Assembly: GCA_965246885.1 (NCBI GenBank)
Contig: OZ251992.1
Span: 3,296,001-3,360,000, forward strand
Length of the DNA stretch: 64,000 nucleotides
Source: Abditibacterium sp.
Lineage (GTDB): Bacteria > Armatimonadota > Abditibacteriia > Abditibacteriales > Abditibacteriaceae
Direction: 5' to 3'
Part shown: one piece after another, positions 51,465-64,000 of the stretch
Numbering within the stretch: the first letter of the stretch is position 1
How the letters are laid out: each line of letters opens with the position of its first letter
Made by a program: the position numbers and the translations under genes
The notes under the pieces: model-generated
Told to the model about the DNA's origin: nothing
The model's database searches: none
The model's input: only the letters and a program-made list of their open reading frames with translations

Positions 51465-52286
51465 TTACGTCCGGCGCGCGCGGATGGCGCCATAGCGGAC
51501 TTCCCGCGACGACAGCAAGCGGTAAATGCGCGATCCGGGCATGCCCGCAAAGTCCGCGAAGGGCGCGCGCAGCCACGTCGGGACGTGCCCCAAAATGTCG
51601 CGCTCCTTGGCGGGCGCGATGTAGTCGAGGGCGCGCACCACGTTCGGCGTAATGTCGGTATCGTCCTCGATGGCAAAGCCCGCCGCCACGAACTCCGCGC
51701 GCAACTCGTCCCACTTCGGGCGCGGGCGCATGTCGCACCAACAGAACACGCCGTCCGGCGCGAGCACGCGCGCCACCTCCGCGAGGAACCCCGGCATGGA
51801 CGGGTAGCAATGCGACGACTCCACGTTGACCACGACATCGAACGTGCCCGCTTCAAGCGGCAAAGCGAGGGCGTTGCCCTGCCGAAAGCGCAAGTGCGGC
51901 GCGTCGTGCAGCTTTTGGGCGAGCAGGACGGCTTGCTCGGAGTAGTCCAGCCCCATCATCAAGCGCGGCGCCCGGTGGCGCGCCAGATAATTGGCTCCGC
52001 CGCCCCGCCCCGACCCGACCTCGACCACCCTCTGACCTTCCAAGGGCACCCCGCGCGTCACGCGCTCGTACAAACCGATAAAGGGCCGATCGGCATCGCC
52101 GCGCGCGTCCAACTCAAGGCGTTCGACCACGTCGTCCATGAAGCCGTAGTTCATAAACGTCCAATCGCCCTGCGAATAGCGGCGGGCGAGCAGTTCATAC
52201 CACGCCTTCCACAGGTCGGCCTTGAGGCGCGGGAAAGCGTCGGTTTGCGCGAGGAGTTTGAGAACGGGTTCGCTCAGGGTTTTCAT
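51465..52286 (-). CDS. class I SAM-dependent methyltransferase (fatty-acid/phthiotriol O-methyltransferase-like)
   Basis: FMNYG, VEVGSGRGGG, NVESSHCYP. Confidence 0.85.
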   Translation of the reverse strand: MKTLSEPVLKLLAQTDAFPRLKADLWKAWYELLARRYSQGDWTFMNYGFMDDVVERLELDARGDADRPFIGLYERVTRGVPLEGQRVVEVGSGRGGGANYLARHRAPRLMMGLDYSEQAVLLAQKLHDAPHLRFRQGNALALPLEAGTFDVVVNVESSHCYPSMPGFLAEVARVLAPDGVFCWCDMRPRPKWDELRAEFVAAGFAIEDDTDITPNVVRALDYIAPAKERDILGHVPTWLRAPFADFAGMPGSRIYRLLSSREVRYGAIRARRT

Positions 52287-54039: not shown

Positions 54040-54848
<809 letters not shown>

Positions 54849-54852
<4 letters not shown>

Positions 54853-55724
54853 CCCGTCCGCCCCAATTCCGCCCAAGGCAACAGGCGCGGTTGCAAGAAC
54901 TTGAACGCCAAGTCCGTCGCCAAGCCCAAAAGCCCCAAGACAAGGATGCCGACGAAGATTTCATCGGTGCGCAGGAAGCGTTGCGCTTTCATAATGCGAT
55001 AGCCCAAGCCGGAATCCGTCGCCACCACTTCGGCGATAACCAGATACGTCCACGCCCAGCCGATCATGGTGCGGCAGGTTTCCATCAGTCCGGGGAGGGT
55101 CGCGGGAAGCAGGACGTTGAACAAGACTTGGCGGGGTTTGGCGCCGAGGGTGCGGGAAGCGTTGAGCAAATCGCGGGGCACGAGGCGCGTCACATCGGCG
55201 ACGATGATAACCATCTGGAAGTAGGTGCCCAGAAAGATGAGCAAAATCTTCGCGGGTTCGCCGATGCCCGCCGCGACCATCACCAACGGGATGAGAGCCG
55301 GGACGGGGATGTAGCGGATAAAGCCATTGAGCGGCTCTTGCGAGGCCTCGACCCCTTTATACGCGCCGATAAGGATGCCGAGCGGAATGGCGAGGATGGC
55401 CGATGCGAGGAAGCCCGCCGAGATGCGAAAGACGCTGATCTTGATGTCGGGCCACAACTCCCCACCGTGCCAAAGCCGCGCGGCGGACGACAGGACGGCG
55501 GTGGGAGTCGGAAGGATAAGCGGCGACACGCGGCCCGTGTAGGAAAAGAAACACCATAACGCGAACACAAGCACGAAGGTGGTGGCCGAGAGAATCCAAT
55601 ACAGCATCGGAGACAGTTCCCCGCCCAGCTGGAACGGGGACGCGCGGCGGCGCGGCGCGGCGCGATTGGCAACCGGCGCGGCGGACGCGAGGGAAACGTC
55701 GGCGTCAAGGGAGTGGGCTTGCAT
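54849..55724 (-). CDS. ABC transporter permease (NitT/TauT family)
   Basis: RYIPVPALIP, SRTLGA loop, GWAWTYLVIAE; start may be 55751. Confidence 0.9.
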
Positions 55725-55756
55725 GGGTGGGTGTGGGTGAGGAGCGATCATATCTC

Positions 55757-55875: not shown

Positions 55876-56982
55876 CTATTTGTAATCGTAAGGCGCGGCT
55901 TTGCCCAAGCCCTTGGCGAGCGAGGCTTTGACGAACTTCGGCTCGACGGCGGCGGCGTAGTCGGGCATCTTCGTTACTTGTCCGGCTTTGACGAGGAACT
56001 CGGAGTTGGACTGGCCGCTCGTGTAAAGCGAAGTGAGGGCGCTTGATTTCTGCATGGCGGCGAGCGATTCGGGCGCGGAGAAGATTTTCGTGCCCTTCAC
56101 GAACGCTTTGTAGTCGTTGATGGGCGTGTCGGTGCGCTTGGCGAGGATTTTGATGGCGGCGTCGGGGTTCTTTTTCCACCAATCTATCGCGTCGTACCAC
56201 GCGTCCACAATCTTCTGCACATCTTCGGGCCGCTTTTCGACGATGTCGGACTTGATTACGAGCAGGTCGGGAATGGCGCCGGGAACGTCCTTGGAGGTGA
56301 AGAGCGCCTTGGAGCCTTTGACGTCTTTGAGAATCTTGTCGAGCGATGGCTCCCACACAACGGCGGCATCCACTTGTTTGGACAGCATCGCGGCGGGGCA
56401 ATCTTGCACTTTGATGTTGGTGAACTGGATGTCCTTTTCCGTCATGCCGTTCTTTTCGAGGGCCTTGAGCAGCAGGAAGTGGTCGACGGTGCCAAGCTCG
56501 GTGGCAACTTTCTTCCCCTTGAGGTCTTTGACGGAGCCGATACCGGGGCTGGCCAGAAGCGCGTCGTTGCCGAAGGAGTTGTCGTTGACGAGGACGGCTT
56601 TTAGGGGAAGCCCTTGCGCGAGAGGCGCAAGGGAGTCTCCCCAAGTTTGGCAGTTGGCGTCAACGGCGCCCGCCGAAAGCGCGCTGATGGAATCGGAGTA
56701 GTTCGGAAACCACTTCAGCTTGACATCGGCGCCGCGCTTTTTGAAGAAGCCTTGCTGCTCGGCGATGTCCCACGCGACCCAGCCGGGCCAATCGGAATAG
56801 CCGATGGTGATGGCATTGGCGTCGCCGGTGTCGGCTGAGGTCGAAGCGGGATTGCTCGCGGCGTTGCCGGGGGCGGCGGCGTTGGCAGAGGGCGCGGCAG
56901 TGTTGTCGGTAGACGGAGAGGAGCATCCGCCGATGAAGGCGAGGCCGAGAGCGAGGACTGGAGCGAAGTGTTTGGCTTGCAT
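55876..56982 (-). CDS. ABC substrate-binding lipoprotein (SsuA/THI5-like; probable guanidine-related ligand)
   Basis: Lipobox IGGC, IGYSDWPGW, DNSFGNDA, VWEP; divergent from the guanidine catabolism operon. Confidence 0.88.
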   Translation of the reverse strand: MQAKHFAPVLALGLAFIGGCSSPSTDNTAAPSANAAAPGNAASNPASTSADTGDANAITIGYSDWPGWVAWDIAEQQGFFKKRGADVKLKWFPNYSDSISALSAGAVDANCQTWGDSLAPLAQGLPLKAVLVNDNSFGNDALLASPGIGSVKDLKGKKVATELGTVDHFLLLKALEKNGMTEKDIQFTNIKVQDCPAAMLSKQVDAAVVWEPSLDKILKDVKGSKALFTSKDVPGAIPDLLVIKSDIVEKRPEDVQKIVDAWYDAIDWWKKNPDAAIKILAKRTDTPINDYKAFVKGTKIFSAPESLAAMQKSSALTSLYTSGQSNSEFLVKAGQVTKMPDYAAAVEPKFVKASLAKGLGKAAPYDYK

Positions 56983-57029
56983 TGGCTGTTTAAAGTTGAA
57001 AACAGCGCAGCACGCAAGGGACTGAAGAA

Positions 57030-57160
57030 GCCGGATGGCTCTTTCAAACGGGCCTTTTCGGTGCCGCACTGGGTTGGTGCGGCCCAGAATGCAGCGTCGT
57101 GGGTCAGGCAAACCGGGAGGGGCGCCTGTCTTCCGTTCGGTTCCGAGCCTGAAAGCGCGC
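57030..57160 (-). ncRNA. candidate cis-regulatory structured RNA (class unassigned)
   Basis: 5' leader of the SBP gene with complementary pairs CUUUCA/UGAAAG, GGCUC/GAGCC, CAGGC/GCCUG and hairpin GCCGCAC-N7-GUGCGGC. Confidence 0.5.
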
Positions 57161-57395
57161 CTTGCCGGGGCAAACGAACTTTCCCCAAACATTGTGAAGG
57201 CCGCGCGTTTCGGCGGCGTTTCAAGTGCGGAAATTTTGGCGACGGTGCTTGGCGACGGGTTCGCGCTTAAGCGTTTCCGGCGCATTTCGCGGACGTAAAT
57301 TGTTCGCGGAAGCGGGCGTGGGGTCTTGTGGAAAGGCGCGGGGCGGTGTAACTTTTGGCGGTGATCAAGAAAGCGGCGCCTCGTGTGTTCGCTTT

Positions 57396-57492
57396 GGTGA
57401 CTATGGTTCCGGCCCGCCAAGCGCGGGCGTCTGGTCAAAGAGTTACCGGCTTCCTTTGGGGAGTTACACGGCGGGATAAAAGCCCGGGAGAG
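57396..57492 (+). ncRNA. guanidine-I (ykkC-yxkD) riboswitch
   Basis: CTATGGTTCCG..GTCTGGTCAAAGAG..TTACACGGCGGGATAAAAGCCCGGGAG; upstream of cgdAB and the carboxylase. Confidence 0.92.
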
Positions 57493-57531: not shown

Positions 57532-58272
57532 ATGCCGATTTCACCCGACACCCCGCCCGCCTACCTTTGGGAAGAGTTCATCCCCGGCGGCAACCACTTT
57601 TCTTGCCTCGCGCGGCGCGGCACCCTGCTGCGCTTCACAGACGCCGGAGGCGGCGCCAACGCTTCGCTGTCGCTCGTCAATTTCGCCCAAACGACCGAGC
57701 GCCTCAACATCCCCGACACCCTCAAAGGCCAACACACCGCCATGATTACGCGCGGTCACGTCCTTTATTCCGACATGGGCCGCGTTTTGTGTTCCGTCAT
57801 CGAAGACACCGTCTGCTGGCACGACGCGCTCTGCGGCCCCGGCGACGACGCCGACCTCGTCGCTCGCTATGGCAACGTCCGCACCTACGCCGATGCGCGC
57901 AATGACATGTTCCGCTCGGCGCGCGGCGGGCTGCTCATCGAGCTTGGCAAGTACAGTTTGGGCGCGCGCGACCTCGGCCCGACGCTCAACCTGTTCTCCA
58001 AAGTCTCCGTCGAGGACGGCGGGACGCTCCATTTCCACCCCGACAACTCGCGCGCCGGGGATGTCGTCACGCTTCGCTTCGAGATGGACTGCCTCTTAGC
58101 CGTCTCGACCGCGCCGCACCGCCTCGACCCACGCCCCGACTACGCTCCGTCCGGCGTCGGCTTGCGATGCGAACGCGCCCTGCCCGTCACTTCCGACGAC
58201 GAATGTCGCGTTAGTTGCCCGCAAAACGAGCGCGCCTTCCAGAATACGGAGCGATATTACGCGGGAGCTTGA
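57532..58272 (+). CDS. cgdA: carboxyguanidine deiminase subunit A (DUF1989, urea carboxylase-associated)
   Basis: [39 protein letters not shown]. Confidence 0.85.
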
Positions 58273-58379: not shown

Positions 58380-58427
58380 GCCTGCGGCCCAAGCGTTCTC
58401 CGAACGCGCTGCCCAAAACCAAACACC

Positions 58428-59078
58428 ATGACCATCCTCAAAAGCTCCTTAAACCCCGCCGACGCCACCGAAAGCGTCCTCTGTCCCCCCGGCGACGGCT
58501 GGTTGCACCTGCTCCGCGCCGGAGAAACGCTGCGCATCGAAGACCTCGAAGGCAACCAAGCCGTTGACACGCTCTTCTACGATGCCAACGACCCCGCCAA
58601 TCGCTACTCCGCCACCAACACGGTCGCGCGCGGCGGCAACCTCTATCTGGGCGCCGGAAGCGAACTTATCTCCGAAGCGGGCGACGTGCTGGCGACCATC
58701 ACCGCCGACACTTGCGGGCGCCACGACACCGTCGGCGGCGCGTGTTCCGCCGAAAGCAACACCGTCCGCTACGCCCTCGACAAGCGCCCGATGCACTCCT
58801 GCCGCGATACCTTTTTGCGCCTCTTGGAAAGCGCACCGCCCGACTTGCCGCGCCTTTCCAAGCGCGACTTGTCCGCCAACATCAACTTCTTTATGAACGT
58901 CCCCGTCTCGCCCGACGGCAAGCTGCGCTTCGAGGACGGCATCTCCGCGCCGGGGAAATACGTCGAAGTGCGGGCGCAAATGGACTTGCTCGTGCTCATC
59001 TCCAACTGCCCCCAACTCAACAACCCCTGCAACGCCTACAATCCCACCCCCATCCGCCTGTTGGTCTGGAGCGCCTGA
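58428..59078 (+). CDS. cgdB: carboxyguanidine deiminase subunit B (DUF1989)
   Basis: [43 protein letters not shown]. Confidence 0.88.
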
Positions 59079-59096: not shown

Positions 59097-62000
59097 ATGT
59101 TCGACAAAGTTCTCATTGCCAATCGCGGCGTCATCGCTTGCCGCATTATCCGCACCCTGCACTCGATGGGCGTGCGCGCCGTCGCGGTTTATTCCGACGC
59201 CGACCGCGACGCGCGCCACGTTGGGATGGCGGACGAGGCCGTTCGCATTGGCGAGGCGCCCGCGAGCGCCTCCTATTTGCGCGGCGACGCCATTCTCGAA
59301 GCCGCGCGGCAAACCGGCGCCGGGGCCATTCATCCCGGCTACGGCTTTTTGTCCGAGAACGCCGATTTCGCCCAGAGTTGCGAGGACGCGGGCATCGCCT
59401 TCATCGGGCCAACCGCCGAGCAGATGCGCTTGTTTGGCCCCAAGCACTCGGCGCGCGCCATCGCTTTGCGCGAGGGCGTGCCGCTTCTGCCGGGTTCGGG
59501 GTTGCTCGATTCCGTCGAGGAGGCGGCGCGCGAAGCGGAGCGCATCGGCTTTCCCGTCATGCTCAAAAGCACGGCGGGCGGCGGCGGCATCGGCATGAGA
59601 TTGGTCGAAAACGAGGCGGAACTGCTCGCGGCGTTCGAGGCTGTCGGGCGCCTCGCGCAGTCCAACTTCAAGGACGGCGGCTTGTATGTCGAACGCTTCG
59701 TGCGCCGCGCGCGGCATATCGAAGTGCAACTGTTTGGAGATGGGCGCGGCGGCGTTATTCATTTGGGCGAGCGCGACTGCTCCGTCCAGCGCCGCAACCA
59801 GAAGGTCATTGAGGAAACGCCCGCGCCGCATTTGACGGATTCGCAGCGCGCGGAACTCTTCGAGGCCGCCCTCAAATTGGGCCGTGCCGTCAATTACCGC
59901 AGCGCCGGAACGGTCGAGTTCGTTTTCGACGAGGAGCGCGGCGAGTTCTACTTCCTCGAAGTCAACACGCGCTTGCAGGTCGAGCATGGCGTGACGGAGC
60001 AGGTCGCGGGCGTGGATTTGGTCGAGTGGATGGTGCGTTTGGCGGCGGGCGAATTGCCGCCGCTCGAAACGCCGGTCTTGCGCGGGCACTCGATTCAAGT
60101 CCGCGTTTACGCCGAAGACCCCGGCAAAGAGTTTCAGCCGTGTGCCGGGTTGCTCACCCGCGCCGACTTCCCCGGCGAAGAGACCGCGCGCGTCGAAACG
60201 TGGGTGCGCGCGGGCGTGGAAGTCCCGCCGTTCTACGACCCGATGCTTGCCAAAATCATCGTCACGGCGCCCGACCGCGCGGGGGCCGTCGCGCGGTTGC
60301 AAAGCGCCTTGGACGCGACCCATCTCGCGGGCATCGAAACCAATATCGAATATCTGCGCCAGATTGCGCGCGACGTTACCTTCATCCAAGGCCGCCAAAC
60401 GACGGCGTATCTGGCGGGGCTGCCTTATCGCTCGCGCGGCGTGGACGTTGTGGACGCGGGCATCCAAACCCTTGTGCAAGACTTTCCCGGTCGCATGGGT
60501 TTGTGGGATGTCGGCGTACCGCCGTCCGGCCCGATGGACTCGCTGGGGCACCGTTTGGCGAACCGTTTAGTCGGCAACGACGCGGGCGCCGCGACGCTGG
60601 AATGTACCGTTTCCGGCCCGACGCTGCGCTTTCGGGGCGCGACGACGATTGCTCTCGGAGGCGCGGATATGGGCGCGACTGTGGACGGAATCGCTCTCAA
60701 ACCCTACGAAGTCCACGCGATTGCGGCGGGGGCGACGCTTAAAATGGGCGCGATTGTCGGCGCGGGCGTGCGCGCTTACGTCGCGGTGTGCGGCGGCTTC
60801 GACGTGCCGGAGTATCTCGGCAGCCGCGCGACGTTCACGCTCGGCAATTTCGGCGGACACGCGGGGCGCACGCTCCGCGTCGGCGACGTTCTGCCGTTGG
60901 GGGACTTCCATCAAGAGCCGATGGAAGCCAATCAAGTCTTGATGGAAGGGAATCAAGAGCCGATGGACGGGAATCAGGTCTTGATGGAAGGGAATCAAGA
61001 GCCGATGGAGTTCCATCAAGAGCCGATGGAAAAGAATCAAGCGTTGATGGAAGCCAATCAAGAGCCGATGGAAGCCAATCAAGGCTTGCGGGAGTTCCCT
61101 CAAGACCTGATTCCCGCCCTGACGAACAGTTGGGAGATCGCCGTGCTTTACGGCCCGCACGCGGCGCCGGACTTTTTCACGCCCGAAGACATCGCCGAGT
61201 TCTTCGCGGCTTCGTGGGAAGTCCATTACAATTCCAGTCGGACGGGCGTGCGCTTGATTGGCCCCAAACCCAAATGGGCGCGGCCCGATGGCGGCGAAGC
61301 GGGGTTGCATCCGTCGAACATTCACGACAACGCTTACGCGATTGGGGCGGTTGATTTCACGGGCGATACCGCGATTATTCTTGGCCCCGACGGGCCGAGT
61401 TTGGGCGGCTTCGTGTGTCCGGTGTGCATCATCGAAGCGGACTTGTGGAAAGTCGGGCAACTGCGCCCCGGCGACACCATTCGCTGGATTCCCGTCGCCT
61501 TCGAGGAGGCCGAGGTGCGCCTGCGCGAGTTGGAGGCCGCCATCGAGTCGCTCGATTTGACCGCGACGCGGCGCCCATTCATCGTGTCTGAGCCGGACGG
61601 CGCGATATTGTTCCGGCGCGAGGCGAGCGAATCGGCCCCGTCCGTCACGCACCGCCAAGCGAGCGACGTTTACATTCTTGTCGAATACGGGCCGGTCGTG
61701 CTTGACCTCAATTTGCGGTTGCGCGCCCACCGACTGATGCTCTGGTTGCGCGAGCAACGGGTGGACGGCTTGCTCGATTTGACGCCGGGAATCCGTTCGC
61801 TCCAACTCTACTTCGACCCAAAGCGCGTGGCGCGCGCGACGTTGCTGGAAGTGCTCCAACGCGCCGAGGACGAGCTTTCAAGCGCGGCGGACGTGGAGAT
61901 TCCCACGCGCATCGTGCATCTGCCGCTCAGTTGGAACGACCCGACGGTGCAGGTCGCCATTGATAAATATCAAGCGTCCGTCCGTCCGAACGCGCCTTGG

Positions 62001-62852
62001 TGCCCCTCCAACGTCGAGTTCATCCGCCGCATCAACGGCTTGGATTCGGTCGAGGACGTGCGGCGCATCGTCTTCGACGCTTCCTATCTGGTTCTCGGCT
62101 TGGGCGACGTTTACCTCGGCGCGCCCGTCGCCACGCCCGTTGACCCGCGCCACCGGCTCGTCACGACCAAATACAACCCCGCCCGCACCTACACCGCGCA
62201 AAACGCCGTCGGCATCGGCGGCGCTTACATGTGCATCTACGGCCTCGAAGGGCCGGGAGGCTACCAACTCGTCGGGCGCACGCTGCCGATTTGGAATACC
62301 TTCGGCGGCGTGCGCGACTTCGACCGCCCGTATCTGCTGCGCTTCTTCGATCAAGTGCGTTATTACCCCGTCTCCGAAGAGGAACTGCTCGCTCTACGCG
62401 CCGATTTCATGGCGGGCCGCTTCGCGCTACGGATCGAGGAGGAAACTTTCCGGCAAGGCGACTACAACCGCTTCTTGGCCGACAACGCCGCGTCCATTGC
62501 CGCCTTCAAAACCCGCCAGCAAGCCGCGTTTGATGCCGAGCGCGAAATGTGGCGCGCGACCGGCCAAGCCGATTATCAGGCCGAATCGGATAACAACGCG
62601 CCGCCACCGTCCGACTTCGAGGTTCCCGCAGGCGCTGTCACCCTCAGCGCGCCAACATCGGGGATGGTGTGGAAAATCCTCTTCGCCGAGGGCGATTCCA
62701 TCCGCGCGGGCGAGGTCGTGCTGATTCTGGAGTCCATGAAAACCGAATTCGCCGTCGTCGCGCCCCATGACGGCACGCTCATTCGTCTGACGTGCGCCGA
62801 GGGCCAAGGCGTCACGGCGGGCGGGGTGTTGGGGGTGCTTGGGGAGGCTTAA
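59097..62852 (+). CDS. uca: urea carboxylase family enzyme, probably guanidine carboxylase
   Basis: Biotin carboxylase ([15 protein letters not shown]), CT domains ([22 protein letters not shown]), biotinyl ESMKTE. Confidence 0.95.
60909..61097 (+). repeat. nine in-frame 21-nt (7-aa) tandem repeats inside the carboxylase
   Basis: AATCAAGAGCCGATGGAAGCC-type units encoding [14 protein letters not shown]. Confidence 0.92.
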
Positions 62853-62957: not shown

Positions 62958-64000
62958 ATGCAACCACTCACTTTCCAATCCCTCCGCGCCGCCTACGCAA
63001 GCGGCGCCGCGACACCCTCCACACTGTTCCCCGAACTCCTCGCTGCCGCGCGGGAAGCGCCCGATGGTGTGTGGATTTGCCTCGCCGAGCCGGACGAATT
63101 GCTCGCCCAAGCGCGCGCATTGGAGGCCCGCAACCCCGCCGACTTGCCGCTTTACGGCGTCCCGTTCGCCGTCAAAGACAACATAGACGTTGCGGGCTTT
63201 CCGACGACGGCGGGGTGCGCGGCTTTCGCCTACACGCCGGAGCGAAGCGCGTTTGTCGTGCGGCTGCTCGAAGACGCGGGCGCCATTTGCTTGGGCAAGA
63301 CCAACCTCGACCAATTCGCAACGGGCTTGAATGGCACGCGCTCGCCGTTTGGCGTGTGCCACAACGCCATCCAGCCAGAGTACATCGCGGGCGGCAGTTC
63401 GAGCGGCTCGGCGGTCGCGGTCGCGTTGGGGCTGGTTTCGTTCGCTTTGGGAACGGATACGGCGGGTTCGGGGCGGGTTCCGGCGGCGCTGAACGGGTTG
63501 GTCGGCCTCAAGCCGACGCGCGGTGTGTGGAGCATGAGCGGCGTGGTTCCGGCGTGCCGCACGCTCGACACCGTCTCGGTGTTCACGCACAACGCGGCGG
63601 ACGCGGCGAGGGTGTTCGCTACGCTCGCCAAACCCGACGCCGCCGACCCGTTCGGGCGCGGAGTGGAGCAGAACGGGCACGACTTTTCGGCGCTTCCGGC
63701 GTGGAAGTTAGGCGTGCCCGACGCGGGGAGTCTCGAATTCTTCGGCGACGCCGAATATGCCGCGCTGTTCCAAGGGGCGAGGGAAAAGGCGCAGTCGCTG
63801 GGCGCGCAGGTGGTGGAGATCCCCTTCGCGCCGTTTCTCGAAGCCGCGCGGCTGTTGTATGAGGGGCCTTGGGTAGCGGAGCGGTATCGCGCGGTGCGGT
63901 CGCTCGTCGAAACCAATCCCGACGCGCTACTGCCCGTGACGCGGAGCATCATCGAGCGCGGCACCCAATTCTCGGCGCTCGATGTTTACGCGGCGACCGA
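62958..64000 (+). CDS. atzF: allophanate hydrolase (amidase signature), runs off the window end
   Basis: Hand translation from ATG 62958: PLYGVPFAVKDNIDV, GKTNLDQFATGL, GGSSSGS, GTDTAGSGRVPA. Confidence 0.92.
   Translation, partial: MQPLTFQSLRAAYASGAATPSTLFPELLAAAREAPDGVWICLAEPDELLAQARALEARNPADLPLYGVPFAVKDNIDVAGFPTTAGCAAFAYTPERSAFVVRLLEDAGAICLGKTNLDQFATGLNGTRSPFGVCHNAIQPEYIAGGSSSGSAVAVALGLVSFALGTDTAGSGRVPAALNGLVGLKPTRGVWSMSGVVPACRTLDTVSVFTHNAADAARVFATLAKPDAADPFGRGVEQNGHDFSALPAWKLGVPDAGSLEFFGDAEYAALFQGAREKAQSLGAQVVEIPFAPFLEAARLLYEGPWVAERYRAVRSLVETNPDALLPVTRSIIERGTQFSALDVYAAT

Follow-up and report, generated by a model that had tools for sequence, protein, structure and literature searches.

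Among the leader RNAs with which the present locus can be compared, guanidine-III riboswitches are H-type pseudoknots and ANTAR-bound leader RNAs are twin hairpins. In guanidine-II, two G-C pairs join an ACGA loop to an ACGG loop, and this pairing forms the pocket in which guanidine lies at the G (excerpts of PMC9300104 and PMC7736828), and the use of ACG or CG steps extends to guanidine-III (same part of PMC7736828). The guanidine-IV and Gd4v RNAs, as outlined in sections of bioRxiv 10.1101/2020.10.21.349134 and PMC9788692, have two hairpins, a pseudoknot and a 3' intrinsic terminator, and are found mostly before exporters. In its excerpted text, PMC7736828 also describes the motifs GGAM-2 to GGAM-6 from Actinobacteria, Proteobacteria and Selenomonas, mostly located before sugE, and reports no guanidine binding for them. 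Synechocystis gdmH combines a nitrogen promoter with a guanidine riboswitch (extract of PMC12704784). Two papers from 2025 count, in the portions available, four guanidine riboswitch classes (PMC12186494, PMC12508155).

We analyzed a window of 64,000 nt from Abditibacterium sp. (the whole stretch of DNA presented here, to which all positions refer) in which two operons diverge. On the plus strand, a guanidine-I riboswitch (57390-57492; RF00442, 89 bits), already named in the initial annotation and confirmed here, heads the genes for UAAP1 (CgdA, carboxyguanidine deiminase subunit; 57532-58272, TIGR03425 over cut-off), UAAP2 (CgdB; 58422-59078, TIGR03424 over cut-off), a urea/guanidine carboxylase (59097-62852; TIGR02712, 1794 bits) and an allophanate hydrolase cut by the window end (62958-64000; NF006043 over cut-off on the partial protein). 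The middle of the carboxylase is interrupted by a low-complexity stretch that repeats units of 7 residues (MEGNQEP-like). The minus strand reads a ~200-nt leader, an ABC substrate-binding protein gene (SBP, SsuA/NMT1 type; 55876-56982, ATG at 56982, TIGR01728 over and TIGR03427 below cut-off), a permease gene (SsuC/TauC type; 54849-55748) and an ATPase gene (TauB/NrtD type; 54040-54852), the last two below curated cut-offs. The transporter is a probable guanidine importer; the SBP has no close solved relative (the best is TauA, E 1e-17), so its ligand is not readable from structure. About 290 nt past the ABC operon, on the same strand, lie a cytochrome P450 gene (52311-53750) and a methyltransferase-like gene (51465-52286), a pair not seen at the corresponding place in the relatives' loci.

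The proposal under study was that the SBP leader is an RNA distinct from the known guanidine classes. Close relatives of the SBP (62-79% identity) were found in 12 other genomes of the 41 searched, all of them Abditibacteriaceae, and in 11 of the 12 a shared motif lies immediately 5' of the SBP gene. In the twelfth (G024) the motif stands two genes further upstream of the SBP and a second copy lies elsewhere in the genome. Together with one further copy on a metagenome contig (L034), the set comprises 15 copies and 14 distinct sequences from one family; apparently operon-internal SBP paralogues lack the motif. The initial annotation had called for a look upstream of SBP orthologues and for a scan against Rfam. 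The former revealed conservation of both sequence and structure, and the latter (Rfam 15, E<=10) gave no credible match in the leader, the one hit being a frameshift-element fragment at E 6.3.

What is conserved is a single nested hairpin of 69 nt (57081-57149, minus strand), which fills only part of the span of 57030-57185 marked initially and consists of an outer stem P1, a near-invariant internal loop and an inner stem P2. P1 is formed by the strands 57141-57149 and 57081-57089 (nine pairs in the window), the 3' strand being supported by RNAalifold, covariation and the single-unit fold; its outer pairs show a shifted register or a mismatch in about half of the copies. The 5' strand of the internal loop, J1/2 (57129-57140), is purine-rich and contains ACGG, with 98% mean pairwise identity and invariant alignment columns, except that two of 14 copies have one extra nucleotide. 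The opposite strand, J2/1 (57090-57104), contains ACGA and a second CG and shows 93%, while the flanks of the motif fall to 42-47%. P2 (57105-57128) has a fixed base and a variable top, spans 24-51 nt among copies and folds as a hairpin in every one of them; its terminal loop is the most variable part, and the conserved bases sit in the internal loop, about 26 of which are invariant. ACGG and ACGA are invariant in all 14 distinct copies and face each other across the loop with no closing pairs of their own, where guanidine-II would have two capped hairpins; the initial contrast with the ACGR loops of guanidine-II was thus half right. The leader matched none of guanidine-I, II or III in Rfam. 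RNAalifold paired the two CG steps of J2/1 with those of J1/2; because these pairs are invariant, alignment and covariation are silent on whether they form. Folded by itself, the 69-nt unit of the window adopts this P1/internal loop/P2 model.

The same P1/P2 hairpin was returned by RNAalifold run unconstrained on an unconstrained MAFFT alignment. Of the 210 alignment cells of P1 and P2, 85.7% pair (90.5% in P2). The covariation score reached 0.355 against 0.211 in shuffles, none of 500 scoring as high, and at most 0.152 with the partners slid, with the reservation that kinship among the 14 sequences overstates the significance of shuffle tests; counting only the pairs with two-sided changes gave no significance (95 of 500 shuffles). 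The clearest cases are the P2 pair 28-74 (AU in 7 and GC in 7 of 14), with at least three GC/AU switches on an SBP tree with open forks, and the P1 pair 11-93 (AU 7, GC 5, GU 2), which follows a minimum of one GC-GU-AU path, both counted by eye. The P1 pair G10-C94 is present in 14 of 14. The lengths of P2 occupy all three classes modulo 3, which argues against a leader peptide or a fixed DNA operator, and both were rejected for this reason. Single-sequence folding was at chance level for the leader (56975-57200, z -1.05) and for the aptamer (z -0.21), so the structural support rests on the comparison of relatives, and by that comparison the leader is a real, conserved, structured RNA.

This hairpin differs from the pairings drawn initially. 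The quoted letters are present on the minus strand of the window, and a 5' region of ~200 nt fits the distance between a putative start near 57184 and the ATG at 56982. The stem CAGGC/GCCUG was correctly recognized and is P2. The words CUUUCA/UGAAAG and GGCUC/GAGCC are complementary as claimed (the 6-mer 57150-57155 to 57041-57046, and the 5-mer 57145-57149 to 57037-57041), but the conserved pseudoknot built on them does not hold. Their 3' partners share base 57041 and their 5' partners abut, so that, given the known geometry of H-type folds, the full-length helices are incompatible as one such pseudoknot. For the homologues of both words in the remaining 14 copies, shuffled sequence offers downstream pairing that is just as good (fractions 0.21-1.0), and the window's own pairings gave shuffle fractions of 0.10 and 0.47. 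Moreover, the 5-mer is part of the 5' strand of P1, which is supported by covariation. The pseudoknot and its long-range pairings were rejected for lack of conservation. The CGGAAG/CUCCCG pairing contains a mismatched A-C position, and 57114-57119, its 3' side, falls within the variable P2 loop; some 6-bp complement to CGGAAG, which belongs to the J1/2 strand, occurs inside P2 in 6 of 15 copies, a count that allows G-U pairs and has no shuffle control. The GGCUC/GAGCC pairing is present in the window's ligand-free minimum-energy fold, and both it and the CGGAAG pairing may be alternative local 'off' pairings.

All 15 copies have a promoter-like element upstream and a guanidine-related gene downstream, on the same strand. 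In the window this element comprises a GAAAC-N6-GAAAC direct repeat (57207-57224), a putative nitrogen-regulator DNA box that recurs in 15 of 15 copies and that we take to resemble the GlnR box, and a −10-like hexamer (57191-57196; NANAAT, 10-11 nt past the box, 15 of 15), which would place the start of transcription near 57184. A sigma-70 scan of the window leader detected no site. The box is separate from the RNA motif and upstream of the hexamer, and a second copy lies at 57273-57300. In the window's own genome, the best match to the box profile is upstream of what are presumably, from their sequence features, a P-II-like gene and then a glutamine-synthetase-like gene. An extended form of the box, TTTTAC-N7-GAAAC-N6-GAAAC, was observed in the window at both box positions and at G000:C1:3452588, 2858587 and 3163731, near P-II/glutamine synthetase-, permease- and ATP-grasp-like genes, and looks like the mark of a nitrogen regulon in Abditibacteriaceae.

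We then considered how the hairpin could act on the genes that follow. On its 5' side, the 25 nt upstream of P1 share 42% mean pairwise identity and contain P0 (57167-57186), a hairpin of poorly conserved sequence that appears partially in the whole-leader fold and varies between folds. On its 3' side, P3 (57050-57085, core 57063-57083) reuses the 3' strand of P1 and is a candidate anti-aptamer. Bases of the P1 3' strand were paired in 15 of 15 folds of the 62 nt beginning with that strand, to a variable extent and in L034 with only two bases. The mean probability of the central P1 pair was 0.80 for RNA ending at P1 and dropped to 0.07 once the natural tail extended 50 nt further (0.24 with shuffled tails); including native 5' sequence lowered the first of these values to only 0.36. 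P1 was missing from the minimum-energy fold of 13 out of 13 full leaders. The drop in probability and this absence indicate that, in the folding model, the aptamer is metastable, as expected of a switch held by its ligand, and the specific role of P3 as a competitor of P1 is modestly supported by the same predictions.

Further downstream, folding gave a hairpin P4 (57023-57046), which contains the UGAAAG and GAGCC words and has no U-tract after it, and, in the ligand-free fold, a hairpin P5 immediately before the start codon (56985-57006). Locking the aptamer of the window opened P5, with a rise of the mean unpaired value from 0.40 to 0.57, and the start region opened in only 2 of 13 leaders, the window and one other, so that a conserved ribosome-site switch was not found among the 13 leaders folded. 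No intrinsic terminator was found on the minus strand between 56900 and 57560, and by eye no U-tract is conserved among the 15 leaders. What recurs downstream is an excess of C over G, seen in 15 of 15 leaders (mean +8.8 per 90 nt; the same measure is 0.02 for 1051 upstream windows taken from crude calls), and a rho gene was present in 5 of 5 genomes checked. From the C-rich tails and the presence of rho, our best guess is that output would occur by Rho-dependent termination.

To place the motif in its gene context we used a sample of 27 Abditibacteriaceae genomes, which are kin, so that the counts are not an independent statistic. A model search found the motif in 13 of them, a guanidinase-like gene occurs in nine and CgdA in five, and the guanidinase and carboxylase routes are mutually exclusive (9 and 5 genomes, no overlap). 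All 13 motif genomes have a guanidine-degrading route, eight through the guanidinase and five through CgdA/carboxylase. Conversely, the motif is present in 13 of the 14 genomes with a route and in none of the 13 without one, the only exception being G011, an 87% complete genome in which the gene is split across two contigs. In five of the eight genomes the guanidinase-like gene follows the motif on one contig and in the same orientation, and in the other three it is on a different contig. Its protein matched the solved structures 9FEK (E 5e-151) and 7ESR/7OI1 (E 1e-145), the next solved relative being a guanidinobutyrase at E 1e-47; the former entries are the Nitrospira and Synechocystis guanidinases, according to a portion of PMC11410670.

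Guanidine-I occurs in only 3 of the 27 genomes, and no Rfam guanidine family was detected in 10 motif loci from nine genomes without guanidine-I. In two genomes the motif alone, without guanidine-I, heads carboxylase genes. In G020 it precedes an SBP-permease-ATPase-CgdAB-carboxylase-allophanate hydrolase operon, and in G024 one copy lies immediately before CgdA and retains an apparent remnant of an SBP start, so that this arrangement probably arose by deletion of the importer genes. The second G024 copy precedes genes for a 2OG oxygenase and a TIM-barrel protein; relatives of the two (39% and 46% identity) flank a guanidine-I/II locus in Paraburkholderia. The oxygenase could not be assigned to MgdH. 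Guanidine-I and the motif stand back-to-back in four loci (G000, G010, G012 and L034).

Other genes in motif-led operons encode creatininase-like, isochorismatase/biuret-hydrolase-like and metallo-beta-lactamase-fold proteins, gamma-glutamyltransferase, type III glutamine synthetase and 2OG-Fe(II) oxygenase. An extended operon at L154:2-7776, L156:2316-8512, L155, L157 and L034 contains a second NMT1-type SBP, an isochorismatase and a metallo-beta-lactamase-fold protein and continues with a creatininase-like protein, type III glutamine synthetase, gamma-glutamyltransferase, RidA and guanidinase, with urease or nickel-transporter genes divergent in several loci; its gene content suggests an uncharted pathway for a substituted guanidine. 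At L157:5975-8508 and L159:7852-8658 (G014 and G023) the second SBP and the creatininase-like gene appear in pieces, which reflects either long-read errors or decay.

Outside the family, guanidine-I often precedes the same transporter. Among 80 metagenome loci with relatives of the SBP, 57 have a guanidine-I-like leader by pattern, nine have another conserved block, one has the present motif and 13 have none of these, and CgdA, uca or guanidinase genes are in the locus in 45 of the 80; plasmid loci of the same transporter family have guanidine-I by Rfam in three of three. Since most genomes of the family lack guanidine-I and guanidine-I leads the same transporter elsewhere, the motif stands where guanidine-I stands in other lineages and appears to substitute for it in this one. 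The copies largely represent one inherited operon. On a Cupriavidus plasmid (L115:1267-2954) we also observed an IscB gene with a HEARO RNA near a guanidine-I-led transporter.

The nine loci with another conserved block share a different leader (L035:3844, L036:4777, L037:2243, L038:4800, L040:4765, L041:1619, L043:4762, L044:800 and also L042), made of a short variable-loop hairpin, a linker and a near-invariant GAGC-AUGGC-GCUC hairpin. Their SBPs are 56-64% identical to that of the window, and seven of the nine have guanidinase, CgdA or carboxylase genes nearby. The pattern for guanidine-I did not match this leader, nor did any Rfam guanidine family in the seven loci scanned. Its twin-hairpin layout recalls guanidine-II with different loops; it could be another riboswitch candidate or a site tied to a divergent Lrp-like gene noticed by eye in some of the loci.

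Searches with the motif model found no copy in the other four genomes of the class, in 137 genomes of other Armatimonadota, or in 151 each of Cyanobacteria, Verrucomicrobiota and Chloroflexota, the last three sets having no positive control within. The model R1 found only the window and L034 across 88 sequence sources, and the sampling covered one genome each of Pseudomonadota and Actinomycetota and none of Bacillota. On plasmids, blastn returned only matches with E>=2. A loose pattern matched in 35 of 401 Armatimonadota genomes, and its matches beyond the family were discarded, given that the stems were missing, a reversed-pattern control matched at a similar rate and 0 of 17 reached a profile E<0.01. 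A GTDB-wide pattern scan gave at least 117 matches; among those listed, seven were true copies, all from Abditibacteriaceae (of the known copies outside the window's own genome, 11 fit the pattern and these are seven of them), and the other 110 listed were set aside, having no profile support (best E 0.019). Five pattern matches in viral contigs were attributed to chance. In the sets searched the motif is thus confined to one family and, unlike the usual strong riboswitch candidates, is not spread over several phyla; a diverged form may exist outside Abditibacteriaceae.

Conservation, covariation and gene context all support the initial view of a distinct RNA outside the known guanidine classes, one that, as far as sequence comparison tells, probably senses guanidine or a derivative. 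Our preferred reading, to which we give a probability of about 60%, is that the motif acts as an ON riboswitch for guanidine and has a fold that differs from those of guanidine-I to -IV. The conservation, the covarying stems, the position and the gene context are observed, whereas the ligand, the ON direction and the stage of output are inferred. When nitrogen is limiting, transcription of the ~200-nt leader would be started by a regulator bound at the GAAAC-N6-GAAAC box. During synthesis of the 69-nt hairpin, guanidinium would enter the invariant loop, probably at a pairing of the opposed ACG steps similar to that of the ACG loops in guanidine-II. In the folding predictions, the ligand would hold the weak P1 against P3, which would otherwise capture the 3' strand of P1. 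With the ligand present, the importer and catabolic genes would be expressed; in its absence, Rho could act on the exposed C-rich tail and end transcription, or else, in certain lineages, pairing would continue to cover the start region. The narrow range of the motif, the irregular outer pairs of P1 and the fact that shuffled tails also break P1 count against this proposal.

The same new fold could instead recognize a substituted guanidine or a related nitrogen compound, such as methylguanidine, guanylurea or a creatinine product, that is imported and then converted to guanidine. Accessory genes in motif-led operons, creatininase-like and biuret-hydrolase-like genes among them, point to substituted substrates, and a guanidine-II switch has been described that recognizes both guanidine and methylguanidine (passage in PMC12508155). 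Furthermore, four loci keep both guanidine-I and the motif, for which a second ligand is a simpler explanation than two guanidine sensors. We nevertheless consider this rather unlikely: what the 13 motif genomes all share is an enzyme for free guanidine while the accessory genes vary, the motif by itself heads the CgdAB-carboxylase genes in G020 and G024, and the oxygenase/TIM-barrel pair also occurs at the Paraburkholderia guanidine-I/II locus. An equally improbable, more specific form would be an undescribed fold that uses guanidine-II-like ACG:ACG chemistry within a single internal loop and is selective for a substituted guanidine that has no known sensor. Somewhat less probable still is that the leader senses no small molecule directly and is instead the binding site of a protein, which would itself respond to nitrogen status or guanidine and act in antitermination or in the control of translation. 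Proteins, too, typically bind internal loops that are rich in purines and invariant, and both the narrow range and the want of a conserved expression platform would suit a lineage-specific partner; yet no regulator gene recurs beside the motif in 14 loci (by crude ORF calls), no ANTAR domain exceeded the cut-off in 5 of 5 genomes, and the motif occupies the place that guanidine-I has in other lineages.

Two further explanations seem very unlikely to us. That there is no RNA switch, and that the conservation reflects a DNA operator, a leader peptide or shared descent, would agree with the chance-level folding of single sequences and with the restriction of all copies to one family. It is hard to reconcile with conserved blocks that flank a spacer of 24-51 nt which always forms a hairpin, shows compensatory changes and has lengths that are not multiples of 3, with flanks that have decayed to 42-47% identity, and with a DNA box that lies apart, upstream of the −10-like hexamer. 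The chance that the motif has already been described, or is a distant form of a known guanidine class, is just as slim: GGAM-2 to -6 were compared by description only, and ACG/CG steps are common to guanidine-II and -III, but no credible Rfam match appeared at E<=10, the GGAM-2 to -6 motifs come from other lineages, where the gene behind them is mostly sugE, and the four-class count of 2025 still stands in the excerpts cited above.

If the preferred reading is right, the motif would be a fifth guanidine class, an independent RNA solution to binding the guanidine ion that replaces guanidine-I in one lineage, and it would test the ACG:ACG pocket outside kissing hairpins. It would also link several unassigned enzymes, the creatininase-like, biuret-hydrolase-like, type III glutamine synthetase and 2OG oxygenase/TIM-barrel ones, with guanidine-related scavenging of nitrogen in bacteria that have received little study, on the evidence of 14 distinct sequences from one family. 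Were the ligand a substituted guanidine, import would be controlled apart from the carboxylase operon with its guanidine-I switch, and an uncharted pathway would be expected among the hydrolases of the operon.

A search of the literature, which mostly excluded subscription papers, found no matching motif, no fifth guanidine class and nothing relevant on riboswitches in this lineage. Armatimonadota are not mentioned in the main-text portions of the GC-IGR surveys PMC11109978 and PMC8632094, and the excerpted text of PMC12335538 has no such motif. Within the literature and Rfam releases searched, the motif is undescribed, and it falls outside every class whose features could be compared.

Guanidine-I shares with the motif its genes (importer, CgdAB, carboxylase and guanidinase) and its place behind a nitrogen-type promoter; it consists of two side-by-side domains where the motif is one hairpin, the two stand back-to-back in the window, and RF00442, which matches 57390-57492, has no match in the leader at E<=10. 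ANTAR-bound leaders differ from the motif likewise in that the motif is one hairpin, and PF03861 had no match over the cut-off in 5 of 5 genomes. With guanidine-III the motif has in common A-flanked conserved CG steps and guanidine genes, but it has no conserved pseudoknot and RF01763 did not match at E<=10 (a search with no positive RF01763 control). The guanidine-IV (GGAM-1/mepA) and Gd4v RNAs resemble it as a candidate ON switch that sets an aptamer stem against a downstream hairpin, and are set apart, by their described shape, by the motif's lack of a terminator and of a loop-loop pseudoknot and by its importer and catabolic genes. Like GGAM-2 to -6, which are unvalidated RNAs beside guanidine genes (Lenkeit et al., PMC7736828, in the part cited), the motif is a candidate, and descriptions of lineage and context separate it from them, since it belongs to Abditibacteriaceae and to importer and catabolic genes. 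A nitrogen-type promoter before a guanidine switch, here a candidate one, is the feature it shares with Synechocystis gdmH. The motif shares with guanidine-II one ACGA and one ACGG, whose CG steps are predicted to pair in the motif, next to guanidine genes; RF01068, which does match control loci, has no match in the leader or in the motif loci, and whereas in guanidine-II each ACGR caps a G-C hairpin of its own and the two hairpins kiss, in the Abditibacteriaceae motif both lie in one internal loop.
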